The notes under the pieces are model-generated. The model was not told where the DNA came from, searched no databases, and was given only the letters and a program-made list of their open reading frames with translations. Made by a program: the position numbers and the translations under genes. 64,000 nucleotides of DNA from Amoebophrya sp. A120 (taxonomy: Eukaryota > Protista > Dinoflagellata): NCBI GenBank assembly GCA_905178155.1, contig CAJINV010000006.1:3568169-3632168 (forward strand), read 5' to 3'. Positions 2,875 through 48,620 of the stretch are shown here, one piece after another. Numbering within the stretch: the first letter of the stretch is position 1; every line of letters starts with the position of its first letter.

Positions 2875-3147
2875 TTGCACGAACAACACCAAGCTGTATC
2901 TGCCCGGCGCGATAGAGAAAAACGCTGCTCATCTTTCCATGCGGAATCTAAAGAAGACCTCTATTTGTGTCTGACATGTTGAATGAAAGTAAAGTGAAGA
3001 CTTCAGGCTCTATGCATACGGGCACTATGCATACGGGCACTACACAGACGGCAACGAAATTGATTTCAAAATGGTCAATTCATCCTTGGTCAAAACTAGT
3101 GTATGGTCCTCACAATGGCTGAAAAACTGCAGCGGGCTTGAAGAACA
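2875..3147 (-). pseudogene. Diverged duplicate of the 3' end and downstream flank of the RAD51 paralog
   Basis: 3040-3147 aligns with 13344-13456 (GATTTCAAAATGGTCAATTCATCCTT.GTCAAAACTAGTGTATGGTCC); 2875-2975 resembles 13180-13285; no upstream coding part seen. Confidence 0.7.
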
Positions 3148-7600: not shown

Positions 7601-10600
7601 CAACCCGTCCTCCTCACCTTGATCTTTTAAAAAAGAGAAGACCTCCTGCGCGCGGTCATGAAGTTCTTCTTCCGTAAATACCCCGCCTTTCATTTCTTTT
7701 GCTTTGAAACAAATTTCCGGAATTTTTTCGCCGCGAGCATCAAGCTCATTCACGGGCAGGTGGTTTCCCGCTAAAGTGCGGCCCGGAGAAACCAGGCTTA
7801 GAAGGGGGCCGCCAGGACCGCGCGCCGGCTGCAGATGCTGCATAATAGTTTGACTGGCGGCAAAAAGATCCGACTTCGGGGTGTAGCGCGCGGGCGGTTG
7901 TGTGAGCGCCGGCTTTCTGGAAAGGCGACGGACCGAGTCAAGCCGTTTGCACTTTTCATCGCTTCGCGCCGGGCTTAAAAAGCCGGGGGTTGAGTCAAAA
8001 TTTACGGAGCACTGACCTTCGCGAAGAAGCTGATCGCTGCCCGGCGTTTCACATTCGGTTTTGCTATTCGGTCCGGATACAACAGGATTCCCCAACACCA
8101 CTACCATTGCCGCATTATTACGGCGGGCATCGGCGTCCATGTTGACAATGGACGCAAGATCAAAATCAAATTGCCTGGGTTGGTGAGGTTTCCACGCAGG
8201 CGAAGCCGTCTGGCCCTCGGGTTGATGGCCCTCTGCCTCGTTCTTCGTCTTTTGAATTATTTCAAAGCCCATGTTGCGGGGCTTTAGGTCGTTCAAAATA
8301 ATGCCTGCTGCAGCGAAGCGCTCCAGACAAAAGTGTAGCTGGCTGACGTAGTGGTCCGCATTTTTCCGGAGGTGCTCACTGTCTTGCTGCGTTGTGCCCT
8401 CAAATCCTGGCGCGAGAACAACTTTCACCCGCTCCACGAAAAAAAGAAAACGGAGCCGGCCCGGCTCAGCAAAATCTAGCTCGTCCTCGTCGGTGCGGGC
8501 AAAGACGTAAGACACAAAGACTCGCGGGACCCGGGCAACACAATCTTGCACGTCGGTGCGTCCGTGGCTCAGCAACAAGTTAAGCAAAATTTCTGTCCAC
8601 GCCACTTCTTTCATGCACTTCACGTCATTCTCTGCGCACTCAACCACCTTCAGCACTTGTTCGTACTCATCATCACCGAACACCTTATTATTCAGCAAAT
8701 TACTAGTGAGGGCACTGCCCGCTTCTTCCGCAGCCCTTTTTGTCGAGTGAAACTCCGTCCACACCTCGCCAACCGTTCCTTTCCCCCCGGGTTCGCCCTC
8801 GTAGAGTATGAGGCTCTCTTTGTCGCCTTCGTCTGCACTGCCCTCGGTGCGGCCCATGGCAGCAACATCAACATTGCTCCAAAGGGGACGTACGGTATGA
8901 TGATTATTTTCTTCAGCGCGGCTCCCGGCGTCCTCAGACAATGCTGGGTGCACAAATTTTCCGACCCATTCTCTCGCAGAGATTTCGCCATCGCATGGTG
9001 AGCACGATCCCGCTGTTGCAGCTCCTCTTTTCTGGGGGCGATTATGCATTGCAAATGCGTCTATGTCATGTCTGGAAGATTGCAAGATCTGTCTCGAAGG
9101 TTTCGCATGCCCAGAAGGTGAAGGTCTGGGCTGGAATGCGAGCTGGTGTAGCCGTACAAGCTTTGAGAAGGTCAATGCGCGATGCCTATTAATTCATTAT
9201 CCTGAACAAGAAGAAGGCAACATCATCGGGCGCCCAAAATTGGGCCGCTTTTTCATCATGTGCTCAAGCAATACAGATTCATTCGTGCGTCCTCGCCCAG
9301 ACCTAGAAGGACAGACTCGGGCTATTCCAGGCCCACAGAACATATTTGCAATGCACAGCCACCTCGAAGTTCTTGTTCATCTGCTGGTGAATGTAAATCG
9401 CACGAGAGATGATCATGAGCACCAACATGAGCGTTCTCGAGCAGGTAGCGCATAGTCTCGGGAGCAACCTGGCAAGCAATCCACAATTCTTGCGTAACGC
9501 GATATACCACCTGTGCGTGCCACAATTTGGTCTTAGCAACCGGGTCACTTTTTTCATCCTGGGATGATTTTGACGCGTGTTGAAGAAAGCTCAGCTCAGT
9601 ACTGTTTGCGAGAAGCCTGCTCGTCAAGTCCGAGTTGCTAAGCAGTTCAGGATGCTGCCCTCTAGCAGGTGCGTCTCTGACTTCTGAAATCGCAGTTGCA
9701 GTGGATGCAGGTGTGATGGAACCTCCAGGGCCACGCCGGCGGGCTTGTTCCGCTGTGGGAAAAAAGTTGTGGTAGCGTTGTTGTACAAAACTCATTTCCT
9801 GCTTAGTATCCCGACGAAAAAAAAACTGCTTACACTTACACACTTGCTGTAGCTTCAACAGCAGCACAACGCGTTTTATTTATATCCGCATGACACAGAA
9901 AACTTGCAGTGTTAGATATCATACACAAGAAATGGAAAAACACGTATGGCTACATCACGACTAGGCTCCTGAGTACAATGTAATCCGGCATGAGAGAACC
10001 TGATGTCTGTCTTGTAATATGGTCTGCAGCACTTCAAAAATGTGTAACGGTAACACTTTTTTCGTTGCATAATGCTCTGCGTTCTTGCGTGATTGTGATG
10101 CCTCGTTCCTCGAACTGTTCGTGACCGAAATCGGCAGCAGTGCGGGCGACAAAGCGTCAGAAGCAGTTTGAGCCCCGCCGGGAAGCTGTTTTTGCTGAGC
10201 CGGGGCGGACGGCTGTGAAAAAGAAAGGCTTGGCTGGACTTGGGTTTTCTCGGTACTAGTGGGAGAAGACGCTTTTTCTTTCAGCCGCCCGTCCGACTGG
10301 TGCCCGACTGTCGCATGATTCGCCACCAGCAGGGAGGTGGATGAGGACTCCTGATCTTCGTTCCCAGAAGTGCCCTGCTGCTGGTTATGTTCCATCCGTA
10401 CACGCGCAAACGAAGCGGGCTCCCACCGAGTGGTAGGATTTGTTGTTTGCTCTGGAGGATGAATGCTCGATGAGGCGCTCTGTTTAGCAGCTCTTGCTTC
10501 CTTTGGTCGCCCCATGATGTCGTCTACCGCAGCGGTAATTCGCGTTTCGTTGGAAGGCTTAGTATATGCACTGCAAACATGCCGGCGCCGGGGTCTGGGT

Positions 10601-11828
10601 AACAAGGCTTGTGATGCTAATACAAACTCGGAGTATCACGAGCAGGACGTCTCAAAATATTGCCAGCCCTCTGCCGAATGACATTATAGCTTTCGGGCTT
10701 CTTACGTGCTGCCTATGGATTCATCTGCGCTTCAAACTGCGTTTTTGTATGACAGAAAAACGGGCCTTTTGGGTACCAACGTGCATGACGGACTCGAAAG
10801 TCTGTCCCTGTGTCTGTCGTGCCGGCCGAGCACTACAAAAGCCTGTCCCTGCATTCTTCCAGACCCAGACACTCTTGATTTGATACTATCGTGGCGGTCG
10901 CGGCGGCGCCAGGAACGTCTTGTCCCTGTGGCTTTTTTATTTGGTCCTCTTCCTTTTTCGGGGTCGCGTAGCCCAACAAGGACCAGGGAAAAGAGAAGCC
11001 GGGTTCTGCCGGAAAAAGGTTCTTGCCAAGCCAGGAGTGGCTCGGCTGGTGGTCATCCACTTCTCCACCGGGAACCGCCGCATGCGTGCACGCCGGTGTT
11101 CCATAATTTTCGCTTCCTTCAGCACAGTCCGCGGCGGTCGCCACTGGCTGTTCCTCTGCCGCACGGCGTGCAGCTGTTCCGCGAAGATTGCCGTATTTGA
11201 CGCGATATGAAATGCAAAAATGTCTGGGTCTGGAAGAAAAATGCATGATTTGTCATGCATATTTCTCATGACCCATGATGCCTGTAATGCTCGACCTAGC
11301 ATCGCAGACTTTTAGAGGGCTTCCTGATGCACCCTCCGCATGACAAATGGCCCGTCCGTGTAGCAAAAACTGCACCCCTCTTGCTGGTCATGCAATACAA
11401 ATCTTTTTAGAGTCCAAAAACAGCACGACAAGTTGCAACGTTCCAGACCCAGACATTTTTACATTTGATACGCGACGCTTGGCTGCAGGCTGAGACGGAG
11501 CAACTACGGGCCCAGCTGTCGGTCCGCTTGTTTCCGGTCGGTTCTCGAGCGCGCTGGTGGGCACTCGTCCTTCTTTTTCCACCGCCCGACCCGACCCGTG
11601 AGAAAGTCCTCCATCCTCCCCTGGACCCCTGCCCAAATCGGGTTCCACGTCGTTCACCTCCCCTGCCCTCCTGACTCGCATTGCATGCGCGTTCTGCGGT
11701 GCTAAGCTGAAGTAGAAACACCCCGGCACGACCGCGGAGAGAGGGAACAGAAACCCGGGCAGAAGTAGGCGCCCAGATTTTGCTTTGTTCATTGTCTTCA
11801 TTTTGGATTTGCTGCTCAGCAAGCTCAT
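4645..11828 (-). CDS. Signal-peptide protein with long low-complexity N-terminus and tandem protein kinase + pseudokinase domains
   Basis: Approximate exons 11828-11471, 11205-10886, 10564-10072, 9806-9358, 9042-~6162, ~5034-4645; the first four joins are in frame after removing element+5 bp. Domain 1: GGKGTVGEVW, VLK, NDLKPRN, DFDLA, GFLSPA, KSDLFA. Domain 2: GGRGLNGKVW, VLK, NDVSPSS, NFDAA, KSDLFA. ORF 4645-5040 repeats the AQHIRLGL.PE.DS tail of domain 1. The last join is uncertain. Confidence 0.75.
5035..6161. mobile_element. ~1.1-kb GC-rich insertion or intron in the second kinase domain tail
   Basis: Separates segments that are contiguous in domain 1; poly-C run ~5050-5066; GCGCG direct repeats at 5030-5034 and 6162-6166 give the in-frame join TARAYFLDY; lacks TAT/ATA ends, boundaries uncertain. 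Confidence 0.45.
9043..9357. mobile_element. Introner family A, degenerate
   Basis: TATGCATTGCAAAT...ATTTGCAATGCACA; DR GCGAT/GCCAC; removal joins upstream exon to the kinase ORF in frame. Confidence 0.65.
9807..10071. mobile_element. Introner family H/F-like, degenerate
   Basis: TATCCCGACGAAAAAAAAACTGCTTACACTTACA...TGTAACGGTAACACTTTTTTCGTTGCATA; in-frame join; TAAG acceptor available. Confidence 0.6.
10565..10885. mobile_element. Introner family A, degenerate
   Basis: GGGTCTGGG / TTCCAGACCCAGACAC TIR cores; DR lost, but element+5 bp restores frame; a GT...TAAG splice is also in frame. Confidence 0.7.
11206..11470. mobile_element. Introner family A
   Basis: TATGAAATGCAAAAATGTCTGGGTCTGGAA...TTCCAGACCCAGACATTTTTACATTTGATA; perfect DR CGCGA; join KRRV-KYG. 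Confidence 0.92.
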
Positions 11829-30725: not shown

Positions 30726-31393
30726 TAACTTGTTTTTTTATCACGACTTCCTACTTGTTCTTCTAGAGAAATGCCGATTGAGATGATGTCAAGAGCCAAC
30801 GAAGAACGCGGCCATGCGGGCTATGCTCAAGCAAAGCCGCAGAACATGTAAAGTGGAGTACCCATAAATAGGTGGTCAAACGGCTGTCAAAGGACAAAGC
30901 CATGGTCAGCATCAGGCTCGGGATCTGGATCAAGAATCACCGCCACCAAAAAAACTGTCTTATGTTGAGCTTGATCTTCCTTTTCTCACCTGCGAGTGGT
31001 TTCATCATCGTGGGTGGATCTTCGTGATCGTGGTCTTCGTGCTGGAGCATGATAAAAGTCATCTTCAGCGATAACTTTGGTTCACAATGATCACAAAAAA
31101 CAGGCCACTGCTCTTTGATGCCCGCATTAAAGCGAGGACAACTGCAACAGCTGCACGAGGACAGACAGAGAACATCTTTAACACGCCGCGATAGAAAACT
31201 ACCACGACAGTTTTACTGTATGTCGGTCAGTAGCAGTACTGCTCCGGTGCACTACTACACGCTGAAAAACCCTTCTTGGGCCGCCAGGTCGAATAAAAAG
31301 CTGCTTATTTATTTTTCTTCGTTTCCTTCCAGAAGTACAACTGTTGAAACTTGGTATTGTACAAGGTTTGAGCAAGTTCTTTCGAAAAATACG

Positions 31394-31616
31394 GAGCGGG
31401 GTAACAAATTCTGCCGAGTTGTGGCCGTCCCACTTTTCACCCGCCCGGCCGGGTGGGTGACTAGTGGGACGGAACCAGGAGCCTGACCACCTGGCCGAAT
31501 CTTGCTTTTCGCCGTTCTCGTGGTCAGGGTCCTGGTTCCGTCCCACTAGTCACCCACCCGGCCGGGCGGGTGAGAAGTGGGACGGCCACAACTCGTCCGA
31601 ATTTGTTACCCCGCTC
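31394..31616. mobile_element. 223-bp hairpin MITE with ~97-bp inverted arms
   Basis: GAGCGGGGTAACAAATTC...GAATTTGTTACCCCGCTC; arms ~31394-31490 and ~31520-31616 nearly perfectly complementary; intergenic. Confidence 0.85.
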
Positions 31617-32459
31617 TAGCTTACAGTTGCATTAATATTGCCTGGTATTGTCATTGACACTGTCTTGATGAAGTAGACGCCTATCCCTTGTTCTACCAAC
31701 TTTTTCGTTCCCCGCTTCCTCGACTCGCCATCTTCATCCGCATCTCAGATTCCAAAGACAGATAGATACCACGATCGATTTTACACAAGTGCGAGAAGTA
31801 GTTCTAACGCAACTAAAAACTGATACGTTCTTGAAGCTGGTGCGGGTCTTCAACTTCTCCACTGCGCTTTTTGTGAATAGAGTTTCAATTTCATTCAGAT
31901 TCGTACCGTAATTAGTACTTGTTGTTCTTGATCTTGAACTTGTTTGGATAAGATTCACTTTGAAGGTTTAATTTGGGTGACATATATAGACATTGATAGT
32001 AGTTCGTCGTCGAGTCTTTCAATACTACCCGCCTCTCGGGCAGTGGCAGGTGCGACCAAACTAATTTTGGGCTGTAGCGACGTCCCATGGCCCTGCTGCC
32101 CGCCGACTTTTGTTAATCGCTAAAAATAAACTCAAGCTCTTGATGAACCGACGAAGCCTTTTGGTATTGAAATCTTGAAAATAAGTGCCTGCAACGCTAC
32201 ACGACTTCCACGAAAACGCATCGCACTATATAATGCGGTGTAGAAATTAAAATTATCGTGTTTGTGTAGCTCGTTTGCTATTTCAGTATAAAATCGTTGT
32301 AAAGTTCTCTTCTCGTTTTACTTGTTGAATTAGTTTGATGATATTGACAATCGAATAGGAATAATAGAGTTCTGTATTCTCGGTGATAGTGAACTTCTTG
32401 TTCTCCTTCCATTAATTTTTGCTACGTTTTGTCCCAAGCACGACAGCACACCACCTTCC

Positions 32460-35400
32460 CTACACCGGTACCGATGTCGCGTGGTGTCCGCTGCCCATAC
32501 TAGTGCCTCCCATAGGCATCGGCGGCGGACTATCAAAAGGAAAAATCCCCCCTCCCCATATCGAAAACGAAATTTGTGATGCTGTATTTGAGTACACAAG
32601 TCGACTTGTAATGCTAGAAGGCCAAGAGACGCAGCTGTGGCCTCGTTTGCAGGCAATTTGTCATGCTGTTTCCCACTTCCAGCTGCCCCCTGTCATGCTG
32701 AAGATGCAAGTCTTTCCCACGCCAACCACCACTACAGTCCGCATCCTTTCCCTTCTAGCATGACAAACCTGATTTGTGGCCACAAATCTGCATCACAAAT
32801 TTCTAGTTTGAGTATGGGGTGGGGGGATTTTTCATTTTGATACGGACTGCTTTTCGCGGCCATGCTCACATTCATCTTCGGCATAATCCCTCCTGGCGGC
32901 GTATGGATGTGTCAGGTTTGAAATCGTCAAAGTTGAAATAGTTTGCCATGCATAAAACGGATACCAGTTAGACCTACAGTTTGTAGTCGGTGCATGACAA
33001 ATCTTCCCGGTCCTGGAAGCGAGTCTGTGATGCGGTTTAGGGTAAAAGAGCTGTCTTCTGGCATGCTAGTCAGCAGTCCAACTTTTGACCCTTGCCAGGA
33101 CTATAATCTGCCTCCCGTGCGTCCTCTGCAGTAGAGTCACTTTTTGTATCGCATTTTATGCATGACAAATCATTTCAACTTTGACGATTTCAATCCTGAC
33201 ACATCCATACGGCGCCGGACCACCGCTTCCCATCTGCACTTTCGTCATGTTCAGGGGTTGGATGCCCATTTTTTGGATCACGGTTTTGTGGTTATGCTGC
33301 ACGGCGTGGGGTTGATTCGCCGGCTGTATGCTCTTCTGATGTTGACCGTTAGCTCCTGGTTGATGACCACCAGCGGCCGCTGCTAGATACCCCCGCCCTG
33401 CTCCGGAAGTAGCGCTGCTCCTGGCGCTACTCTATCACAAGAAAAAGTGTTAACGTTAACAGTTTTATACAGATTGCAGCCATGCATCACAAATGTAGCT
33501 CAATATGCATGCTATGCATTACAAATTTTAGAATGTTTTGCGATGCATTGCTGCATAACAAATTCCGTTAACGTTAACACTTTTTGCTGTGATATACTCC
33601 GTGCGGAAATCATGTCGGGTTGTTTGTTTCGGGCCGATATGCATTGCAAAAGTATCGCACAACTCGTATAAATTGCATTACAAATTGACTTCGCATTACA
33701 AATTAAATCTGTAATGCGGATTTGCCTAAAAAAAAAAGATTTGTAATGCATAAATGCAATTAATACGTCGAGTACGTTACTTTTGCACTGCATAGCCGAT
33801 GATGCGGCACTACTTCTCGACGACTGCACGACCACCGTGCGTTTTGGCGGGTTATGGGGCTCTCAAGCGTTACATTCTCAACTGGTACATGATTTGTCAT
33901 GCAAAACTAGCATCACTATCCACACGATCTAGCTGCTTCGCATGACAAATTTCCAAAGGGCTAAACAGCAACGAATAATCTGTGCGGAGTTTGTAATGCT
34001 ACAGGTGCAGCCTTCCCCCTTTGACTTTTGCTACTCTTGCATTAGAAATTCGTGTACGTAACTGTTGAGAAGGTAACGTTTGAGAACACCATACGGGTAA
34101 GAACTTGACTGTAGTGTGGGTTGTTGCCCTGCGGTTTCTTGCTGTGCAGCGGGTGCTGGCGAGGGCTGGTAGTCTTGCTGCGCCGCGGGGACAAATTCTG
34201 CGGAGGCTGTCGCACCTAGATACCAGGATTCAAGTTGAAAGTTGGGATTTATTGTAGCGAGAATAAAGGAGCATGAAGATGAAACATCCAACATAATGGC
34301 TAAGTCTACTTCAGGAGGGGGAGAAGAGATGTTGGTCAAAACTTGATGAAACTTGAACTACCACCATCCTAGATTCCGAGAACATCAAACTCAAAACTTT
34401 ACCCTGACTACTTTCCGCGACGTGCGCCGGAGCTACTTCGACTACCCTTGTGTATCCTGTGCAAAAGTATCGCCTTCGTAGTAATCTAAGGATCGCAGTC
34501 ATGCAGCATTACAAATATGAATAAGTATCCATCCCAAGGCAAAACAGCATTACAAATTACCTTAACCTTTGTCATGCTGAGCTAATTTGTATTGCAATTT
34601 ACACTAGTACGATGCTTTTGCAATTCATATTGTGTCTATCGTTCCAATCTTCGACCTTTGCCACGGACCCGGGGGCTATCAAATGCAAAAGTGTCTGGGT
34701 CTGGAAGATTCTGAGACTTGTCATGCACGGTTTGCATGAGCCATGATGTCCGTGATGCATGCCCTAGCATCACAGGTTTTTTGAGGGATTCGTGACGCCT
34801 ATTCCGCATGACAAATGTCCTCTCCGCGTAGCAAAAATTAGATTCCTTTTGCTGCTCATGCAACACAAATTTTTTTGACATCCAAATGCAGCGTCACAAG
34901 TTCCAACCTTCCAGACCCAGACACTTTTGCATTTGATAGGGGCTCGTGCGAGTAGGGGAGATACAGTGGCTTTGCGTTCCGGCCCTTGTGGTGCTGATAG
35001 GAATGATTCAGTTTTAATAGATCGATTGTCATGTTTGTTGCGTATGGCAAACTGACAAAGTGTTCTAACATTTGCATGACAAACAGAAGACAAACAAAAA
35101 ACACATTCGTCTACTTAAGTACCTCGTTCGTGACAATGTCGAATCCGCGCTTCACTGGCTCTTTGAATCTGTCGATCGCGACCTTATTCATCCTCCTCTC
35201 CTCCGTAATCTGGTCGTGCCTGATGTCCTGCACGTGCTTGTTATGGTAGTCGATATAGCGGTATGCATTGCAGAAGTATCGCACTCCTCGTAGTATTTTG
35301 CAATACAAATTAGCTCGGCATGACAAATGGAATTTCTCATGCTGATTTAGCTTGAAGAAGAAATTTGTCTTGCTTGACTGCGATCAGTACGAGTACGATA

Positions 35401-38400
35401 CTGTTGCACAGGATAGGCGGTTTTTGTACCGCTCCTTCGTTTCGTCTTCCGCCAAATCTAACCACTTCACCATGTCCACATTGTGCACCTCATCCGGACT
35501 ATGCAATACAAATCTACCGCACACGACGCTGACGCACAAACTGCATCACAAATTTCGACCACATGATGAAAGTAGCAATCGTTTGTCATGCTGAGTTTGG
35601 TAGAACAAAACTCGTATCATGCAGAAGTGCCATTGAAAAATGTGCGGCAAATTTTTTACTATGGATACGGATTAATCACGCTGTAGAAAGCGCTCGGCCG
35701 GTTCTTTATCGTGGGTGGCACCTGCGCAAGCGCTATCAAATGTAAAAGTGTCTGGGTCTGGAAACTTGTGATGCTGGGTGGCGTATCATGAGGAGGCCAC
35801 AAGTGCTGTCTCAGCAAGGCAAGTTTCTGAGCTTTAAGGTGTTGCCTATTCTGCATGACAAACTGCGTTTCTGCATGACAGAAAAGTGGCGCTCTTGGGT
35901 AACGTGCATGACAGCTTTGAGAGTCATGCCAGACAAGCATGACAAACATACACTCTTCCAGACCCAGACACTTTTACACTTGATAAGCGCTCGGTGGACC
36001 TGTTCCACCTCGTGGGCCTCCTGAAATTGCGCAATGCGCTCCTCTTCCGCCGGGTCGAGAAACCTTTTTTGTAGTGTGTTATATGCATGACAGATCCGTG
36101 GTTCTCATGCGCATGCCAAATCAAGTGCATAGCAAATGCAAAATCTACACAAAAAGACGACTTAATACTGTTGCGTCAGAGGGTTCATGCGGTTCCTGGT
36201 TCGGTGCTTCGCGGTCGCTTCCAACAAGTATGCGAGTGCACAACTCACCCTCTCCTGCATTTGTATAATGGCATGAACAGCAACACAAGCAACAGCAGAA
36301 AAGGGGTCTTCGCATGACAAATCTGCATGCGGATTGTAGTACTTACTATTTGAGGTTCCAAAATTTGTAATGCTAACAGTGCTTACGAGCAAGGTGTAGT
36401 GACTTTGGAATTTTGCATTACAAATGAAGAGGGGGAGGGGGAGTTCGAGTTGTGCACTCTCATAACAAGTTCAACTCGTAATCCCGCTTCGTCTTCTCCG
36501 AGTGGCTATCCTGTACAAAAGTATCGTACCCGTACTAGTCGCCGTCTTGCATGACAAATCCACCAAGTAAGGTAAACCAGCATTACAAATTGCATTTTTT
36601 CTCTTGAAAAAACTTGTCATGCAATTTATACTAGTACGATGCTTTTGCATTGCATAGTGGCTTGCTAGATACCGGTTGGTCACCACATTGAAGTCTTTCT
36701 GGAGAAAAGTTGGCACCATCCGCTGCTTCGGTAGCTTCTGGGCGGGTAAAGGCCGGGCTTCGGGCCGGTCGGGATGGTGGATCGATATGGCGTTCTCAAA
36801 CGTTACATTCTCAACTGTTACATGGATTTGTAATGCAAGAACAGCAACAGTGAAAGTGGCAACGTTGCAGCTTTCGCATCACAGATTTTCCACAGAGTAT
36901 CATGCTGTTGAGCCCTTCGAAAATTTGTCATGCTAAGCACCTTGATCAAGTGGAGGGTAGTGGCAATTTTGCATGACAAATCCGTGTAACAGTTGAGAAT
37001 GTAACAGTTGAGAACGCCATAATCGAGACCGGAAGGTTTGACATGATATTGTAGTCGTAGAACCTTGAGATTTGAATTTGGTATCCTGAGTAGTTGTATC
37101 CGTGTCGTGGCATGACCAAGCCGTTATTTCTTCATGATCCTGCGCGAGCGCGAGAATCCGAAATGGACATGCTGTTGTTCGTTGCACCTTAACAAGATCT
37201 TCAAGGGTGTTGTGGAGGACCAAAACAGGCGAGTTTGTTGTACTTAGTTATACTTATATCTATATGTAATTGTACTAGAAGAGAAGTAACATTGATTTTT
37301 TTGGCACAGCGAACTGATTAGATTTCCAAAAAAAATGTAAAATTTATACGAGTCAGGAAATTTCCGTTTCCCCACTTTGCTTGGTTTCAGGCTCTTGTCT
37401 GCTATGTCTTCGCCCAGACCCGAGAGTTTTGAGGCGTTATTGATGATGTCGAAGCTGAGACGAGTTTTTTTTTGTGGTCCGAGCATCAGGAGTAAGATCT
37501 GTCAGGCGCATTGTGCATCACAAGTCGACCTGACAATTACCATGCTGGCGCACCACAATCATTCCTCATGCGCGTTGTGCATCACAAGTTCATCTTTAGT
37601 ACTTGTTCTCCCGTAGTAGCTGGATATCCTTTGCTCGATTTAGATGCTGGACCCGACACCGCTCTTCTATTACTCGCTGGCCCTTTTCCTGTGATAGCGG
37701 TTTTTCCTTGATAAAGTCATGAATTGTCCGCCTGCTTTTTCATTCTAGTAGAAATGCGTGGTTGTGCATGATAGATCCTGGTGATCAATGTTGTTTTCAA
37801 AAGTTTGTGATGCAAAAATCCCTACTTATACCTTGTCATTGTCCCTGAATTTCTGTAGTAATGGGTCGTAAACTCGCTCCTGTTCCTTCATCATGCCCAG
37901 CCTGATATTGATTTCCGGCCCCTTCAGCGTGTCTATCCAGGAAAAGACACCCATCCCCATCAATTTTTTGCATGACAAATAGCGGATTTTATGGCTGTTT
38001 TGCATGACAAATCGGATGGGGATGGGTGTTTTTTCCTGGATAGTGTCCGGGTGTATCACATGCCGCTTGCCGTACTCGTATTGCCTGGATGGTTTTGATT
38101 TCGACAGTGGTACTTCTAAGCAACATCTTCCACAAGCACAACTTCAAGGGACTGCATCAACAGCAGCACGCATGAAAAATGTATGCCATGCCGTCCTGTC
38201 TTTCACGCATGACAAACATCAAAAGATTAATTCTTACCGCATCGAGTCGCCCCAGGTTGCCGCGTTGTTGCTTTGTAATTTCTGTATGTCGATGGGCGGC
38301 TCCCTTTTTGTTGACGAGCTCGACTTTCCCACCTCCGCTGGCGTCAGCATCCGGTCTGACACGGCTTTGTTCGAAGGTTTTCTCGTCTCCACTGCTGCCC

Positions 38401-38470
38401 CGGAAGGCTCAGGCATGGGCAGGTCCATGCGGCTTGCCGTACGCCCGGCTGCCGGCGGGCCGTCGGCCAT
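32460..38470 (-). CDS. Conserved-looking hypothetical protein with repeated (F/Y)(D/N)II(T/S)N motifs, about 22 exons
   Basis: Reconstructed through 14 TIR elements and ~7 GT-AG introns: RVYDPLLQKFRD, HLNRAKDIQLLRE, FDIINN, DYNIMSNLP, KDFNVVTNRY, LNLLEAT, ERYKNRY, RGFDIVTNE; TAG at 32460-32462; first-intron acceptor uncertain. Confidence 0.75.
32531..32842. mobile_element. Introner family I
   Basis: TATCAAAAGGAAAAATCCCCCCTCCCCATA...TATGGGGTGGGGGGATTTTTCATTTTGATA; perfect DR CGGAC. Confidence 0.92.
32902..33209. mobile_element. Introner family E
   Basis: 37-bp TIR TATGGATGTGTCAGGTTTGAAATCGTCAAAGTTGAAA (1 mismatch); perfect DR CGGCG. Confidence 0.93.
33433..33594. mobile_element. Introner family F
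   Basis: TATCACAAGAAAAAGTGTTAACGTTAAC TIR; perfect DR TACTC. Confidence 0.92.
33638..33794. mobile_element. Introner family B
   Basis: TATGCATTGCAAAAGTA TIR; perfect DR GCCGA. Confidence 0.92.
33853..34093. mobile_element. Introner family D
   Basis: Family D TIRs; perfect DR CGGGT. Confidence 0.92.
34453..34629. mobile_element. Introner family B
   Basis: Family B TIRs; perfect DR TTGTG. Confidence 0.9.
34677..34938. mobile_element. Introner family A
   Basis: Perfect 31-bp TIR TATCAAATGCAAAAGTGTCTGGGTCTGGAAG; perfect DR GGGGC. Confidence 0.95.
35262..35415. mobile_element. Introner family B
   Basis: Family B TIRs; DR AGCGG/GGCGG; join RYKNR-YID. Confidence 0.9.
35500..35667. mobile_element. 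Introner family J
   Basis: TATGCAATACAAATCTACCGCACA...TGTGCGGCAAATTTTTTACTATGGATA; DR CGGAC/CGGAT; in-frame join. Confidence 0.82.
35734..35985. mobile_element. Introner family A (inverted relative to 52103-52358)
   Basis: Family A TIRs; perfect DR AGCGC. Confidence 0.93.
36229..36464. mobile_element. Introner family C
   Basis: TATGCGAGTGCACAACTC...GAGTTGTGCACTCTCATA; perfect DR ACAAG. Confidence 0.92.
36507..36656. mobile_element. Introner family B
   Basis: Family B TIRs; perfect DR GTGGC. Confidence 0.92.
36786..37021. mobile_element. Introner family D
   Basis: TATGGCGTTCTCAA.....TTACATTCTCAACTGTTACA TIR; perfect DR ATCGA. Confidence 0.93.
37934..38042. mobile_element. Introner family G (109 bp)
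   Basis: TATCCAGGAAAAGACACCCATCCCCATC...GATGGGGATGGGTGTTTTTTCCTGGATA; perfect DR GTGTC. Confidence 0.92.
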
Positions 38471-39181
38471 GTTTGTTGAAATAACTGCCAGAAGGGGATA
38501 GTACAATGCGAATGCCCTCTTGCAGCTTATTTTCCGCTAGGTTCAACACACGCACGAATTTTATTGTCGTGTCTTTTTAAAAATTGAAATATTGTGCTTG
38601 TTTCAACGAGGAAATGACTCGAGGATATGAATATGATCACATCTCGAGAACTAAAATTATTTTTACTTCTCGAGATGTGAAGATACGAATAGAACGGTGC
38701 TCCTGCTGCTGCTGCTGAAAAGCTACGACAAATTTCCAGCAACAAGCGACGCGAGCGCTCTCGTGCTCTACTCCAGCAAGCTTCTCTTCAAAAATACGTC
38801 ACTCTACGTCTACACGAACCACTCGCACTCGTCAAGCAGTCCTAGAACTAAATATGACTGATGTCGACCACGAAAAAATATCTGGAGCTGCACGCTCCAC
38901 GAACGAATTTCTAGAAGACCACGACAACAAGCAGGAGGGGCGAACCAATCAAAAGAGTTTTAGGTTTTATTGTTGTTCCTCGTGCACCAAAAGCGAGGAG
39001 TTGGTAGGAACTTCGGTTCAACTTTTTTCGAAACGCACAACATTATCGTATATCATTTACAAGATTATAGACCACTACAACATACAACTGCAACCGGGTT
39101 TCTTTCTTCTGCTGTATTCTCGGGTATTTTTTTTGTCTTTCTAGGAAACGAATTTCTCAAGTTTATTCTGTTGCGAGCTTG

Positions 39182-39497
39182 TATGGAAGCGTCAGGTTTG
39201 AAATCGTCAAAGTTGAAATAATTTGTAATGCATAAAATGCATGACCCGAGGCACGTATGTTGCAGAGCAGGGAAGTGAGGCCGATTGTAAGCCTGTTTCT
39301 TTGGGGTTACAGCTCGAGCTGCTAAAGTAGCATGAGAAAATCGCTCTTCTTTGCCTAAAAAGCATGACAAACTGGATTTTGGGACCAACGAAATTTGTCT
39401 TGCGCCGCTTGGAAACTGGGTTCCAACTCAACTGGCATCCATTTTATGCATGACAAATTATTTCAACTTTGTCGATTTCAACTCTGACACATCCATA
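39182..39497. mobile_element. Family E element outside any recognisable CDS
   Basis: Family E TIRs; perfect DR GCTTG; ~240 nt downstream of the TMBIM stop at 39735. Confidence 0.9.
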
Positions 39498-39734
39498 GCT
39501 TGTTGGTAAGCACGTGCTACTTCTACTTCTACTGGGAGCTAAAAATCTTGATTACAAACTACTTGAGGCAGTGGGGACATCAAACCAATTATTGCGTAGC
39601 GGTTGGTGGAAGGCGAGCAAGGCATATGTACAAATTCTAGCACTCGTTTATTTTTTGCACCTGTATTCTCGAGTATGTTTCATCGTCCGCTGTAGTCAGC
39701 GCTACCGCGTCGGTATAACTTTTCGGCCTTCATC

Positions 39735-42020
39735 TCAGTTCCGCTGGCCGAATAGATGGAGCAAGTGGAGAAAGAGTTGGATGATGTCCATGTAGAGGGT
39801 CAATATCAACTGCAAATATGTTGTCTGGGTCTGGGCGGATGAAACTTGTGATGCTAGTACCCTTGAACTCTACATAAAACCTCTATTGCGTCGTGAACAC
39901 TAAAAAGAGGTCCCGTTTTTGCCACGCGAAGAGGGCATTTCTCATGCGGTATGAGCATCAGAATCAGAAAGCTTTGGCAGAATCTATGATGCTGGGGCAT
40001 GCATCACAGACATCATGGCCATGTAAAATATGCATGACAAACTTGGCACTTTTCCAGACCCAGACATACACATATTTGCAATGCATAGTCAACGCCGCGA
40101 AACAGTAGTCATCCATCGAAAATTGGAAGCGGCGGTGCTTTCCCCCCACAATCATTTGCACGTCGTATACCAGATAAAAGCTGAACAGCAACGCTGCTAG
40201 CCCGGAGTATATCGCACGAAAAAACTGTTTCACTGTAAGGATTTTGCAAGTTTTGCATTACAAGTTTGTTACACATGACACTGAAAGTCTGTCATGCGCA
40301 CTTCCCAAGGAAATACACGCTTCAAAATCCAATGCGTTGCAGGTGTAGCAAGACAAATAGTTCTGTGTTTCATTTTCTGCATCACAGGTTCACAGTGAAA
40401 CAGTTTTTTCTTGCGATAAAGTAGACCACCTCGACAATGCGCGACGCGGGGAGGAACCTTGGAGGTTTGATGTCGTGATATGCAATACAAATTTCCCGTA
40501 CATGTACAAGATGCATCACAAATTCTACCAATTTGAAGCGTGAAACTTGTCATGCTAAACTAGAATCGAAGGCAAGTTTTGTCATGCGGAGACCGCATTT
40601 GTACGTGTACGGGAAATTTTTTACTGTGGATACTTGATGCGCGAATCCTATTTCGAAAGTCTTCATGTCATGCAGGAGAACATCAGTAACTAGGAGCACC
40701 GCGAGTACTACAGTTGCAAATTATGAAAAAAAAAAAAACCTTGAAATTAAAATTATTATTCCCAAAAACTATACATGAAAAACAGTCCCATCAGGCTGAG
40801 GCACATGACCCCCGCGAAGAGATACGGGCCGGCGCCGGTGAAATCGTAGGTCGTCTGACACGCGAACAGGGTTATGACAGTGCACAACTCCCCCTCATTT
40901 GTCATGCAAAAACCCAAATCCAGCTGCTACCTTGTGGCACCGCGCGCATGACAAATTCCGGAAAAAATCCAAACAGTACTACAAACACTTGGCGCATGAA
41001 GAACTTGATGTCATGCACAGGGTCCACCTATACTGGTGTTTGTAATGCTGTCGATGCCATACAAATGAGGGGGAAGGGCGGGAACAGTGCACTCTCATAA
41101 GCATCAAGCCGAGCACGATGACCGCCGTCATCCCGGCAACGCCCAGCACCGTCCAGGTTGTGAATCTCGCGCACGCAATCCCGCAGATCAGCCCAAAGGC
41201 CAGCGTAAACACGAACAGAAAGATGTAATTTTTGGGGTACACGCGCGTCACCGTGGGGTCGCAGAAGCTGTAGCACAGCATGGCGCAGGGGAGAAACGTG
41301 GCGAAATATGAACTGCAAAAGTATCGCACTCGTATAAATGCATTGCAAATTTCCTCAGCATGAGAAATAAAATTTGTAATGCGGATTTACCTTAAGAGCA
41401 AGATTTGTAATGCATGTTTGCAATTACTACGAGTGCGATACTTTTGCACAGGATACGAACACGACCAATGCCATGTTGTTCTGGATAAACCGCCATCCCT
41501 TGCAAATATGTCTGGGTCTGGAAGATTGCCAGATTGGTCATGCATTTTTTGCATGACCCGTGGAGCCTGTAACGCATGACCTAGCATCACAGATTTTTGG
41601 ATGGCTTCCTAATGCCTATTCCGCATGAGAAACGCTCTCTCCACGTAGCACAAACTGGACTCCGACGTTTGCTGGTCATGCAATACAGATTTGTTTAGAA
41701 TCCAAAGACAGCATCACAGGTTGGATCCTCGCAGACCCAGATGACATATTTGCACTTGATAACTGCCGCGCTTGGAGCTGGTACAAGACGAACGGAGCCG
41801 CGATCGCGGCCGTGATCAGCAGCTGGCATCCGGTGAGCAGGAAAACTTTGCGAACGAAGCCGTGGCGGGCGTTGATTTCCAGGTTCTCGATGTAGTGATC
41901 CCGGGAATCCTCATTCGGATCATCGAGGTTGTTTTGCTCGATGCGACGGTTGGGGTCAACGGAGCCATAGTTCATACCGACTCCGCCACCATACCCGCCG
42001 GCAGCGACGGGGCCGCGCAT
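39735..42020 (-). CDS. TMBIM/Bax inhibitor-1 (lifeguard-like) membrane protein, paralog A, 7 exons
   Basis: RHGFVRKVF, YPKNYIFLFVFT, FACQTTYDFT, YLVYDVQMIVGGKH, DDYCFAALTLYMDIIQLFL; five exon-splitting TIR elements plus GT-AG intron 40774-40458. Confidence 0.92.
39804..40087. mobile_element. Introner family A
   Basis: Family A TIRs; perfect DR GTCAA; join FAALT-LYMD. Confidence 0.92.
40210..40418. mobile_element. Introner family H
   Basis: TATCGCACGAAAAAACTGTTTCACTGT...ACAGTGAAACAGTTTTTTCTTGCGATA; DR GAGTA/AAGTA. Confidence 0.9.
40479..40632. mobile_element. Family J element nested inside a GT-AG intron
   Basis: TATGCAATACAAATTTCCCGTACA...TGTACGGGAAATTTTTTACTGTGGATA; DR CGTGA/CTTGA. Confidence 0.82.
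40873..41099. mobile_element. Introner family C (inverted relative to 26907 and 59345 copies)
   Basis: TATGACAGTGCAC...GTGCACTCTCATA; DR AGGGT/AGCAT; in-frame join to LFACQTT. Confidence 0.88.
41307..41455. mobile_element. Introner family B
   Basis: TGCAAAAGTATCGCACTCGTA TIR; DR CGAAA/CGAAC. Confidence 0.9.
41494..41761. mobile_element. Introner family A
   Basis: Family A TIRs (left TAT mutated to CAT); DR ACCGC/ACTGC; join AR(Q/R)-FIQNN. Confidence 0.86.
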
Positions 42021-43342
42021 TTTGGATTTAGATTTTGGATTCCTCAGTAGTCCTCACGCTAAGAAAAGAACAATGCAATTTTTTCTGCTTGTTGTCTACA
42101 TCACACCAAACTACTCGATGGACCGTTCACCCGACTGCCGGAGTCTACTCTCCGAGCACGACTAAGTACAATTTTCCGTATCACCTTCGACGAAAATAAC
42201 GACAACCAGAAGGAAGCGCTCTCTCCATCTCGAATACTTCGACTTTGACACGACTTCTCAACAGACCTTCAGAATAAAGACGGTTTATCATCCGGAGCGA
42301 CGATCGCCGAACAGAAAAGGCTGAAGGGTTTTTTCGTAGTTTTCATCTCCAGCTCCGTCGTAAGCCGGGCGGTACGACGAGGACGACGGACCTGGCTGAA
42401 AGGCACGCTGATCATGATCAGGTGTCCAAGTTTCGTGATTTCTTAGGTGGAAACCTTATAAACTTTCTCTTGCGCAAAACAAAGCTACCAACACTAGTTC
42501 AACGTCACAACATGAAGAAAGCCACAAAAGTGGACGAGAAGTACCCTCGGGAGAAAAGGGCTTTCCTCGTCAGTTCAATTCATGATTTTCAATCGCAGCA
42601 GAATTATGATTTCTCAAAATCTATCATCTGTGGACGTTCTGGCTGGTCGTGTCCCTTTCATCGAAAGTAGGTTGAGGTTATTTGTCCCACCTGCTGAATC
42701 AAATTTTCATCCTCGGATCAATTTTGTACACTTTAGTTTGACGGCGCAGTTCAAGATTTAATTTCGATGATGCGTGACCACGGCAATGCCTGGCCGAGGA
42801 CGAGCTTGTCGGAACTACATCAAAGTGGCTTGTACTTGTTGTAATAAACGGCGTTCTTGTACGATAGAGTTAGAGGTAGTAGTAGCTCAAGGGAACAATT
42901 AAACCAAAAAGTTCTTCGTTTGTAGTTGAAAACCGCGACTGGTGCGCACGCGCAGGCATTCGTCTGACCGTGGTCGCCATCTACTTGATGTTAGAGTATA
43001 GTCGGCAGAAGTAGATCGACGTGCAGCTGATACTGATAGTTCTTACCCGCATTATTTCTTGCGCCGTCGGCTACTTCTCGTATTTGTTGATTTCAAGCTC
43101 AGAAGCTTGTTGAGGTGGGGGTAGATTGGTATAGTCGAATCGTATTCGTAGGTATTGATGGAGTGGCGTTATTGCGGCCGTTCGTTGTATTGCTTGTGGT
43201 TCTTTTAGTTGAGTTTCTACTACTCCTGAGAGGGCGGGAAGATGGAAAGCGCACTTGTACTAGTTCTTGAGCGTTCAACATCTTCAAGTAGTTGTGAATT
43301 GTTGCTGCGTAGTGGTCCTGCTCCGTATTACTGTTGATCTGT

Positions 43343-44754
43343 TTACCGTCGCTCCCCCATGATGCGCAAGATGTGCAGCATATCAAGCAAAAAAGTGCCA
43401 ACGTTAACGGTTTTCACAGAATGCAGCCACGCATGACAATTTTTGCCTCGTGAGCATGCTACGCATGATAAATTTGGGGGGCACCTTTTGTGGTGCATTA
43501 CTGCATGACAAATTTCGTTAACGTTAATAACACTTTTCCCTGTGATACAGGAAGAGGTTGATAATGTCCATGTACAGATTCAGGGCGGCGAAGCAGTATT
43601 CGTCCACAGCAAAGCGGTGGCGGTGGTGCTTCCCTCCCACAATCATCTGCGTGTCGAACACGATGTAGAAGGAAAACAGCAACGCAGACAAACCCGAGTA
43701 GACGATCTCGACCGGCCGGGAGTACGGGACGAACATCAGGATGAAACTGGTCAGGCACAGGCACATCAAGGCGCAGAACTGGAGAGTTGTATAGGGGTTT
43801 TTGCTTGTGGAAATATTTTTCATGTAGTTTTAGATGGCAATAATTTATTGCATGACAGAATCCCTTCCTCATTACAGACTTCGCATCACAAGTTGTACCA
43901 GGAACAGGTAAACCTAAACTATACCAAGTAGGGCCCGAACCCGGTGAAGTCATACGTCGTCTGGCACGCGAAGCCGATCAGACTCAAGGTGATGCACGCC
44001 GTGATCCCTGCCGCGGCCAACACGGAAGCGGTTGTGTACATCGAGCACGTGACGCCAACGATGAGGCCGAACGCGAGCGTGATCATGAGCAGAAAGAAGT
44101 AGTTTTTCGGGTATTCACGCGTGACGGACGGGTCGCAGAAGCTGATTTTTTTGTGTATTAGAAATTTCGATCCTTGTGTCTGTTTTTTCCCTGGCAAGAA
44201 TTAAAATTGTCGGCGATTCGAAGATTCACTTCTCAGAGTCATGTGTATTGCACTATACCAATCCAATAGGAGAGCATGTGCATGTTCTTGAGGATGGCTG
44301 TTAGTGATGATGTGTAAATGCACAAGCACATCATTCCATTAGTTCTTGTACCTGTAGCAAATCAGAATGATGGGGATCAGCATAGCGATCGTCAGAAGGG
44401 CCTGGTTTTGCTGGATAAATATCTTCGCGGATTCGTGGTAGGCCACGAAGGGGAAGGCGATTGCGCTCGTGATTAGCAGCTGGACGCCCACGATACTGAA
44501 CACCTTCCGGACGAAACCGTGCCGGACCGCCGTGTCCATTTTATCTGTCAGAACGTCGGCGGAACCTGTTTTGATGGGTTTTTGTTATGCTTCGAGAAGT
44601 TCCACTTTCTCATTAGTTTCAATCCATGCTGTTACAATTGGAATTGCAAATGCAAATGCAATTCCAATTCTGCATGACAAAATGAAAAACAGCACTGGAG
44701 TTTAGTAGTACCGGCAATGGGCTCGTTCTCGTACTGCGGGTTAGATTCCATCAT
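43343..44754 (-). CDS. TMBIM/Bax inhibitor-1 (lifeguard-like) membrane protein, paralog B, 5 exons
   Basis: VRHGFVRKVFSIVGVQL, YPKNYFFL, FACQTTYDFTG, FDTQMIVGGKH, DEYCFAALNLYMDIINLFL; GT-AG introns 44711-44566, 44351-44142, 43924-43779 plus one family F element. Confidence 0.92.
43381..43547. mobile_element. Introner family F
   Basis: AACGTTAAC-containing TIRs; DR CAGCA/CAGGA; join NLFL-HILR. Confidence 0.87.
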
Positions 44755-45759: not shown

Positions 45760-48620
45760 TTGACTGGTCTGGCCTCGGCATCCTTCTTGGCCTCAGAAGG
45801 CCTCAGAAGGCCACGGCGGCCTCAGTCAGAAGGCGAAGGAGGGCCAGGGCGGCCTCGGAAGGGCCGAGAAACCCTCAATATGCAGTTATCTATCTACTTC
45901 GGGCAGAAGGGAGCCTAAGACGTTGCTTCTTCGGGAAGAGTGAAACAAAGACTCTGACTCGCAGAAAGGTGCTTGCAGGCGCGACCTGAGCGATTGCCAG
46001 ACCGCGACGGCCTGCACGACTGCACCCGCAGCCGCGAGCGTGCCTCCTCATTCCCGAAGCCCACACGCATCCCCACAGCCTCTGTTTCTCCCGATTCCTC
46101 GACTTACGTTGCTACCTACGCCCTTCGCTAGTCTCCCTCCCGCCCTTGCGTGCCCCATGGCTTCCTCGGGTTTCCAGGATTCCCCACACGAAGCGCAAGC
46201 GCGCTGGCGAAACAGAGACTCGAGCAACAGGCGCAGTGGTTTTTCTCTCAGAAAAAGACGGCCAGCAACAGTAGACGTATTTTTTTGGCGGGCTATTTCT
46301 TGAAGTGACTTTTACCCGGGCGGGCATGCGGCTTTCGCAGCTCCCAGCCTTGGAGACAGGGCGGGAATGCGTGGGGCCTTTAGAGGAGCATGCCCGCCAC
46401 GCTGCGCGGGGAGCACGAAAAACCTAGCTACGCTGAATGGCACGGCCAGCGCCCGGGCGTTTCGTTGATAACACCCGCCGGAAAATCCCCGGGCGCGAAC
46501 AATGCGCGAAGTGAGATTAATAGAGAAAAACCAGGGCGGCGCCCGGTCGACGGACAAGAGAAAAACGCTCCGCGCCCTCAGTCGTCGCCCCACACTCTCA
46601 CGCCAAGGCCCCTGCGCGCGCCTAGCGGGCGAAGAGCTTCCCTATCCGATCAACCCCCAACTGTCTGCTTGACGAGAAGAAGGCGCGCGGCGCCTGCAGC
46701 CAGGCTAAGGCGTCTGTGCGCGCGCAGCGCAACGGCAATTTTTTTCCAAGGCAGGCCACCATTGTCGAAAGCGAGAAAACAACTCCGCGCGCCTGCTTCG
46801 CGCGCGACGCAGTTTCTCCCTCCCAGTTACCGGCTGGCGGGCGCGAAAAAATTTTCCGATCGCGCTCTCCTGCAAAGGCGCCCGCCAAAGGGCGCGCGCA
46901 ATACAGGAAAACTTTTTTCAGGCAAGCCCCCACCTGCCGATCGCGAAAAAATTTTTCGTGCTATCAGATCGAAGCGCCTGCGCTTGCGCCCGCAGCGTGT
47001 GCGCGCACTTTTTTTCCGTAAAAACCCCGGCTACAGAATAAGAGTAGAGCTCCGCCCTGCGCGCGCTCTCAGGCCGCGGCGCCTGCCCGCAACGCCCGAC
47101 AACTTTCTTCCCTCCAGTTTCTGTTGCCGGGCGCGAAAAAATTTCCTGCGCGCGACCTCAGACCAAGGCGGCAACGAGCGCGCGCGGTGAAAACTTTTTA
47201 CAATCAGGCCTCCGCGTGCCGGTCGCAAAAAAAAGCTCCACCCTTTGGGGCCGAGACGCCTACGCGCGCGCAGCGCGCGAGTTTTTTTTTCAAACAGAGC
47301 ACCCCTTCCCCCGACGGGCTGCCGGCCGTGAGCAAAGCTGTCCGCGTTCTCAGGCGCGCGCGCGCAAAATTGTCGCCCGGCCAAGCTGCGACTGCCGGGC
47401 GCGAAAAAAATTTGCGACCAAGCCCGCCGGCCAATCAATCCGGCTAGCCCCCCCAGGAAAGCTTGACGCCCCTATGGCAAGGCGTCTGCGCGCGCGCAGC
47501 GCGCGAAGAATTTTTCTCCGGCAAGCCACCCGCTTCCGCACGCGACAGAAACTTTGCGCGCTCTCAGTCCAAGGCGTCTGCGCGCACGCAACGCGCGCGC
47601 GAGAACTAATTTTTTCCCCGACAGGTCACCGGCTGCCGGACGCGAGTAGAGCTCTCCGCGCCCCCAGGACGCGCGAGAGCCTACGGAGGTGCCTGCGCGC
47701 GGTGCTTAGGTGTCTGCGCGCGCGCAGCGCGCGAAAATTTTTTTTCCTGCTAGCCCCCGACTACCGGGAGCGCTGCAAAAAATTTTCGCCGCACCCAGGC
47801 CGAGGCGCCTGCGCGCACGCAGCGCGCGAGCGCTTTTTCATTCGTCGGCCAGACCCCGGCTGCTGGCGGGCGTGAAGCAGCATTTTTGTCGCGCCCCCAC
47901 AAGGTCGGAGCGCCTGCGCGCGCGCAGCGCGCGAAGAAAATTTTTCGGCCAACCCCTAACTACCGAAGCAAGTCAGGGCGCCTGCGCGTGCGCAGCACGC
48001 CACGTCTTTTTTCTCGGCCGGCCGCTGCCCCTGATTGCCAAACGCGACAAGGGCATCGCAAGCAACTACCAAAACCACGGCGCCTGTGCGCGCGCAGCGC
48101 GCCGATTTTTTTTTTCCCGCCGTAAGAGCACAAAACACCACGCGCACACCATCACCAGTACCAATGATGGCGCCGAAATAGGCGCGCGCAATAAGCAAAA
48201 GGCTTTTTCCTGGCCCCGAGCGCAGGCTGGCAGAACACGAAAAGGCGCTCGCGCTCTTCCAAACAAAGCAAAAAGCCGAAGCGGGCTCTGCTTGCGCAAA
48301 ACATTTTCGCGACCGGCCGCCGACCGCTCGGCTCGCATAGCACTACACATCTTCCCAACGTGCGCAACTAGAAATAAGTAAACCGACCCACTTGCGACAA
48401 TTGCGCCGCATTCTGCCCAAAGGGGCCAGGAAACGGATGCAAGCTTCTCGGTAGCGGAAACACGTGCGCAACTGCAACAAGGAACGGCAACTGCAGCAAA
48501 GCTATGTGTTCAAGATAGAAGGGATCGCAGCGCGACTCCTCTGTCCTAGATCGCCCGCAGGTCACAAACGCCGCACGGTGTCCAATGTCGTTCGCGACGC
48601 CGTTCAATGCGTTACCAAAC
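45760..48620. repeat. GC-rich degenerate satellite-like block
   Basis: At least 10 copies of AGGCGYCTGCGCGCGCGCAGCGCGCGA followed by A/T tracts (e.g. 46707, 47255, 47479, 47571, 47710, 47803, 47910, 47976, 48079); AT-rich GAAAATATTCG.TTGA motifs on both flanks. Confidence 0.75.

Follow-up and report, generated by a model that had tools for sequence, protein, structure and literature searches.

Fungal introner-like elements (ILEs) are canonical introns from birth. The present analysis concerns the introners (TAT...ATA elements removed as introns) and the GT-AG introns that accompany them in 64,000 nt of Amoebophrya A120-type DNA (the window). The elements themselves are already known, and the idea that such elements degenerate into regular spliceosomal introns comes from fungi (Collemare, van der Burgt, de Wit, 2013, PMC3609843) and is debated in euglenids (Milanowski et al., 2016, PMC4770533). 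The available part of the fungal report describes no splice-site conversion, whereas in A120 most copies are non-canonical and the old ones stay so. The intermediate introns of euglenids are, in the accessible text, likewise non-canonical with paired ends and apparent intermediates, and their 5' GT is judged there to be no sign of kinship with conventional introns; their pairing (+4 to +6 with -8 to -6, mostly CAG/CTG) differs from the terminal inverted repeat (TIR) transposon anatomy, 5-bp duplication and invariant +2 T of A120. Non-canonical introns derived from transposons with TIRs and target-site duplications are likewise found at species-specific sites in Fritillaria borealis, in which GT-AG introns occupy conserved sites and the spliceosome is adapted (PMC11282704, PMC13326754); its prevalent ends are AG-AC and AG-AT and, unlike in A120, no common internal motif is described in the available sections.

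For A120, the accessible text of Farhat et al. (2021, PMC7789003) reports introners starting with TAT, 35% GT-AG introns and no detected U1 small nuclear RNA (snRNA); snRNP27 was detected in neither A25 nor A120 (Table S6), that text reports no transposase in A120, and the legend of Figure 3 leaves the position of the intron border undetermined. The elements of the window resemble these introners in having TAT-start inverted repeats with a run of A, short direct repeats and many families, and the proteins are 100% identical. A fixed cut register, a donor/acceptor asymmetry and a motif common with canonical introns set the present results apart from that text, and a literature search found no paper giving the cut register or a motif common to both classes, with the proviso that Figures 3 and S19-S25 of Farhat et al. 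may show part of this.

The two classes share the donor register N-T-A-Y (N, any base; Y, pyrimidine) and the intron-only 8-base motif TGTNATGC, and on balance they are probably served by one relaxed spliceosome, instead of introners turning into GT-AG introns. Introns were mapped with transcript-type contigs of runs X1-X4 (two samples from one study, presumed to be RNA), in which the joints represent majority splice forms only. Among the joints listed (15 of 50 in one set and 15 of 16 in the other), two of low depth within one repeat were set aside, and the 28 usable ones define 10 GT-AG and 18 non-canonical introns. Four further introns (one GT-AG and three introners) were inferred, since their removal yields the 2,800-nt spliced length of the contig. 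In total, 32 introns are fixed in three genes, comprising 21 TAT...ATA introners flanked by 5-bp repeats and 11 GT-AG introns.

A larger sample was drawn from a relative's assembly (JACKZZ01) by a family-A pattern scan, which gave at least 173 stretches (163 loci were used, 500 kb once merged), and is thereby enriched in family A; none of the 163 loci overlaps a window gene. From 374 elements found de novo, 22 family profiles were made, with window copies omitted where possible. Full-length profile matches numbered 488, of which 385 were oriented by coding potential (correctly for 13 of 14 known introns) and 103 were not orientable; the oriented copies come mostly from the relative, and the detection threshold of 25 bits plus both ends under-samples the most decayed ones. 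An intron finder that uses no splice signals made 1,158 calls and was dropped as too noisy; among the calls listed, it misplaced an end of most known window introns. An Rfam search of the sequence gave no match.

All 21 non-canonical introns carry a TIR beginning with TAT, one of them having ATG in place of ATA at the acceptor end. Each has BLAST matches at E<1e-5 in the relative and scores 50-292 bits over its length against the family profiles. A direct repeat of 5 bp borders 309 of the 374 de novo elements, in a search that demanded a repeat match of at least 4/5. Insertion duplicates the five bases N1-N5, and the piece excised is N5 + TAT...ATA + N1N2N3N4. This register, N|TAT...ATA-NNNN|, fits 25 of 25 junctions (18 RNA joints and seven from protein models). 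Where the two repeat copies are mismatched, the one retained in the mRNA can be recognised: the 18 RNA joints permit offsets of -1 or 0 only, and the introner intron of P0077 (19258..19411, minus strand) excludes the register one base upstream. Thus, TAT occupies donor positions +2 to +4, like TAY in GTAY. The same register holds where the repeat is absent (10885, 10071), and the acceptor lies four bases past ATA regardless of the presence of AG or of the repeat.

The two ends are not maintained equally. The donor-end T is altered in one of the 385 oriented copies, compared with 15 alterations of the A that mirrors it at the acceptor end (p=0.0005); for the 349 clean copies alone, the counts are 0 and 12. 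Conversely, the +4 base is altered in eight copies and its mirror, the A at -7, in one, and it may be speculated that this A is the branch point. All nine top non-canonical types of A120 in Table S4 of Farhat et al. carry T at +2.

The GT-AG introns show a related donor. The initial annotation had listed seven donors beginning with GTAT or GTAC, and transcripts support every one of them (36168, 37349, 37831, 40774 and 43924 as GTAT; 44351 and 44711 as GTAC). Over the 11 fixed introns, +3 is A throughout and +4 is T in five, C in four and A in two, giving a pyrimidine in 9/11; the 16-17 predicted GT-AG introns added for some comparisons were hand-picked, partly for GTA starts, and are uninformative on donor bases. 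The lengths described there as introner-like overlap in range with those of introners, but the median is lower for the GT-AG introns (148 vs 241, p=0.005, the 40774 intron being measured minus its nested element). Between 34216 and 44711, the 3' ends of the GT-AG introns contain 46% A and 7% G with no pyrimidine tracts and the 5' ends 43% T; this polarity, T-rich at the 5' end and A-rich at the 3' end, is the opposite of that of introners.

Retention of the motif in many canonical introns, also claimed earlier, holds good: TGTNATGC/GCATNACA is present in 8 of the 11, and TGTNATGC occurs 11 times over 1,811 nt (in shuffled sequence, 0.36 times on average and at most 3). It is absent from 3,413 nt of coding sequence (CDS) and 4,176 nt of untranslated region (UTR) and intergenic DNA (7,589 nt together), occurs three times in the remaining intron-free DNA (14,455 nt), and reaches 167 copies across the whole window against 8.6 expected. 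Its density is 6.1/kb in GT-AG introns and 13.8/kb in introners. Old introner copies keep it best, with a mismatch of 17.5% in motif columns against 27-28% in the TIR and 47% in the interior. Because neutral decay at 60-70% identity would by computation leave only 0.4-1.1 motifs/kb, the motif appears to be held by selection in both intron classes. A motif under selection is unusable as proof of ancestry, and this is the weak link in the argument of the initial annotation. The motif columns are nearly blind to orientation (mismatch 8.8 vs 10.6%), and the commonest spacing of same-strand copies in elements is 31-33 bp; this orientation indifference and spacing of about 32 bp point to a putative double-stranded binding site. 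Motif polarity (19 inward and 13 outward, against 696 and 436 in introners) does not discriminate between the models. Of the 70 motif regions of the relative that lie outside known elements, none is repeated and 69 are without a TIR plus repeat.

The course proposed earlier, in which a repeat-terminal G plus TAT supplies the GT, an AG is then acquired and the TIRs finally decay, can be followed through the 385 oriented copies. Its first step stands in an improved form, the last repeat base and TAT forming donor positions +1 to +4, and G+TAT occurs in 116 copies (30%). The remaining steps are not seen in these copies. AG stands in register in 35 copies and together with a G donor in 12, against 10.5 expected, so that GT-AG ends occur at chance frequency. 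AG is present from insertion, the oldest third having it 16/128 times in the intronic and 16 times in the exonic repeat copy, with one-sided cases balanced (tail-only 6, exon-only 5), and the frequency of G at +1 does not change with copy age. The TIRs of GT-AG copies are no more decayed than those of the others (identity 16.5 vs 16.0 of 20, p=0.78). Counting any repeat register, 19/385 copies are formally GT-AG, and these are one source of canonical introns with inverted and direct repeats. In-frame GT-AG alternatives are unused in 3/3 checkable cases, namely the G-donor introners 32531..32842 and 35500..35667 (both minus strand, RNA joints), in which an in-frame AG lies three bases upstream of the acceptor, and the intron with donor 10885 (gene model).

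The last of these was one of two showcase examples. The element at 10565-10885 is, as described, a decayed family-A (F0) element (78 bits) in which the repeat is gone and an in-frame GT...TAAG option exists, but the junction used by the gene model is non-canonical: the deposited A120 protein P0076 retains an extra Lys, so its gene model splices the intron (10561..10886, minus strand) at the introner junction with a 4-nt tail, not at the AG at 10558-10559. The other example, a GT-AG intron from 37831 to 37707 with a CCTTG repeat and a TIR remnant, fails as well. It ends at 37689 in 4/4 runs (joint 37687|37831), skipping the AG at 37707; the CAAGG/CCTTG copy sits 18 nt inside the intron, away from the junction used, and such an internal copy occurs in 1 of 27 GT-AG introns against 0.6 expected; and the end-pairing score of 22 is the 95th percentile of cross-intron pairs. 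Just before the CAAGG stands a 6-7-bp stretch that is complementary, with a gap, to the donor, and an old relic is therefore conceivable.

Residual family similarity, which the life cycle predicts in canonical introns, is likewise missing in the search with 22 profiles: the 11 GT-AG introns reach at most 12.7 bits, by internal matches only, apart from the nested element in the 40774 intron. End pairing of GT-AG introns at the introner register is 2.57 against 2.69 for cross pairs (introners, 6.9 of 9), ATA at -7 to -5 occurs in 0/28 fixed and predicted GT-AG introns, 5-mer matches at their junctions number 2.15 within introns and 2.16 in cross pairs, and no fixed pairing offset is seen at tails of 0-21. 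Ongoing conversion in living families is therefore not supported. Conversion as originally written, visible in present families, is very improbable, the G+TAT donors and the 12 GT-AG copies being outweighed by the failure of both showcase examples, the chance frequency of GT-AG ends, the intact TIRs and the balance of AG gains.

A deeper version of the life cycle has more in its favour. A large part of the GT-AG introns, and in particular those that are strain-specific, could come from older introner waves, now extinct, of which the copies that already were GT-AG or turned into it survived, losing TIRs and repeats and keeping only the selected motif; this is possible, though we regard it with some doubt. 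The motif and donor register common to both classes are what it would leave, and several results that weigh against our preferred reading fit it. The 5' and 3' ends of 27 GT-AG introns are slightly more complementary than cross pairs (16.2 vs 14.4, p=0.0046), albeit at variable offsets; the 11 transcript-fixed introns give p=0.043 and the 16 predicted ones p=0.12, and noncoding controls show no excess. In 18/27 the intron is followed by a G, as repeat-derived donors predict. AG at N3N4 is commoner in older copies (16/128 vs 8/129, rank test p=0.067). The outlasting of TIRs by the slowest-decaying motif is also the expected look of a very old introner. Profiles miss unmodelled families, the introner 915-1151 having scored 9 bits, and 3/11 GT-AG introns beat 20/20 motif-preserving shuffles, at scores typical between unrelated families. 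The two BI-1 paralogs described below, sisters in a tree of 30 of 75 matches (support 99/90, one on a long branch), share 0/4 GT-AG and 0/10 CDS intron positions; without common positions in young paralogs, GT-AG introns evidently turn over. According to the available text of PMC7789003, canonical introns occupy 24.8% of A120-specific intron positions, and both inverted and direct repeats are present in 15% of the canonical introns of A120. The fungal case (PMC3609843) and, in the part of PMC4770533 available, one GC-AG non-conventional Euglena intron serve as precedents.

Set against this deep-time descent, the 32 transcript-fixed introns include no intermediates, the most decayed elements remain non-canonical (10885, 10071 and 9357 in P0076; intron 2 of L031), in-frame AGs are ignored, mutation shows no direction toward GT or AG, and the end polarities are opposite. 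Exon position -2 is A in just 6/27 GT-AG introns, whereas birth on NNAGG predicts A. It is unlikely that the GT-AG introns are simply old and their motifs the debris of introners that inserted within them before decaying or undergoing partial deletion. There is one clear nested case, the TAT...ATA element 40479-40632 within 40774-40458 (family F12, 157 bits, 91% to L067, 4/5 repeat), but the host keeps a motif minus the nested element, and the other 10 introns lack family-level similarity, although neutral debris with 44% of introner motif density would be ~89% identical and easily detected.

In the single-spliceosome reading that we prefer, a spliceosome with relaxed +1 and acceptor would read introners and GT-AG introns alike. 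Some 3% of insertions hit NNAGG and are GT-AG from birth with their TIRs kept. The motif would be maintained by selection in introners and GT-AG introns alike, as a mark of introns that is independent of orientation. The +4 T/C preference would be a host trait exploited by TAT-ended elements; SNRNP27K is not detected in A120, and its loss accompanies +4 U in yeasts. The +4 U donors that follow METTL16/SNRNP27K loss (Parker et al., 2023, PMC10581693) resemble the +4 pyrimidine of A120, in which snRNP27 is undetected; the effect is shown, in the text available, in Saccharomycotina only, and in A120 GTAC is also frequent. At least half of the GT-AG introns may predate these strain-specific families. 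In the accessible text of PMC7789003, 19.4% of A120 introns lie at positions common with A25 and 98.6% of these are canonical, figures from which it follows, by our own arithmetic, that the canonical introns of A120 split roughly equally between strain-specific positions and those common with A25. A bolder combination, which we consider improbable as a whole, is that TGTNATGC, recurring at intervals of about three helical turns (31-33 bp), marks all A120 introns as a domesticated transposase-type subterminal site for intron definition; a ruler starting at the TIR end, and not AG, would then fix the introner 3' end four bases past ATA, with the conserved -7 A as branch point, and GT-AG introns would be fossils of earlier introner waves under the same mark.

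The stretch 919-1147, at one time taken as a GT-AG intron with a strong inverted repeat, is an old introner (915-1151, minus strand) outside the profiled families. Its subterminal inverted repeat is long, its acceptor end reads ACA in place of ATA, and its repeat matches at 4/5. Read in a different frame it looks like a GT-AG intron, whereas its own register keeps the frame of the upstream exon. It was taken out before the final end-complementarity test, which changed p from 0.0002 to 0.0046. In L031, a DSK2-like gene at 5841-6470 (plus strand; best PDB match 6jl3, E=0.058) has a GT-AG intron 1 with motifs and a 9-bp end complement. Its site may match that of a human ubiquilin intron; a literature search on the ubiquilin exon boundary found nothing. 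Intron 2 (G-TAT...ATA plus a 4-nt tail, 9-bp TIR, no repeat) is apparently still non-canonical. The P0076 gene has three strongly decayed introners (9043-9357, 9807-10071 and 10565-10885), and P0076 contains a large internal duplication at 6131-9052 on the minus strand (39% over 556 aa).

The three mapped genes all lie on the minus strand. The two BI-1/lifeguard-family copies are P0001 (43343..44754, 245 aa; copy 1; three GT-AG introns and one introner), which an exon of the gene matches with 100% identity, and, as copy 2, P0005 (39733..42020, 268 aa; one GT-AG intron and five introners in the CDS); both proteins belong to the Bax1-I family and are labelled Amoebophrya sp. A120. Copy 1 contains GT-AG introns at 44566..44711 (GTAC, two motifs in inverted arrangement), 44142..44351 (GTAC, without a strict motif) and 43779..43924 (GTAT, two motifs 33 nt apart and a 6-bp end complement with a 10-nt tail), and copy 2 the host intron 40458..40774 (GTAT). 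A further introner in the 3' UTR of copy 2 (39182-39497) is removed exactly, with the same length of element plus five, though no reading frame requires its removal. The third gene (31293..38566, 621 aa, family not assigned) has 21 introns, seven GT-AG and 14 introners, and its spliced length agrees with the 2,800-nt contig. Its GT-AG introns are 38085..38237 (GTAA) and 37455..37602 (GTAC, two motifs 64 nt apart), both absent from the initial list, 37689..37831 (GTAT), 37064..37349 (GTAT), 36064..36168 (GTAT) and 34994..35122 (GTAC), and 34216..34402 (GTAA), inferred from transcript length.

Apart from these, two family-B introners (25908-26863 and 58307-59278) are swollen to ~960 nt by inserts that are rich in GC and contain repeats; the one in the first introner matches L022 (78% over 829 nt), and the other includes a tandem array of 13-bp units (59019-59161). 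A 97-nt, 96% inverted repeat lacking TAT/ATA ends (31394-31616) lies in the 3' UTR of the 621-aa gene and is possibly another miniature inverted-repeat transposable element. A GC-rich array of ~10 diverged 45-nt units without contig cover occupies 46600-48130, and an intergenic segment of ~90 nt is seemingly duplicated, as judged by eye, downstream of different genes (3041-3141 and 13346-13432).

How tens of thousands of non-GT-AG introns are spliced in A120 with no detectable U1 snRNA was an open question in 2021. Conversion, if true, would let the passage from transposon to ordinary intron be observed, but this sample argues against it for living families. The fixed register, the invariant +2 T, the AG-independent acceptor and the intron-only motif of both classes make the question of A120 splicing directly testable.

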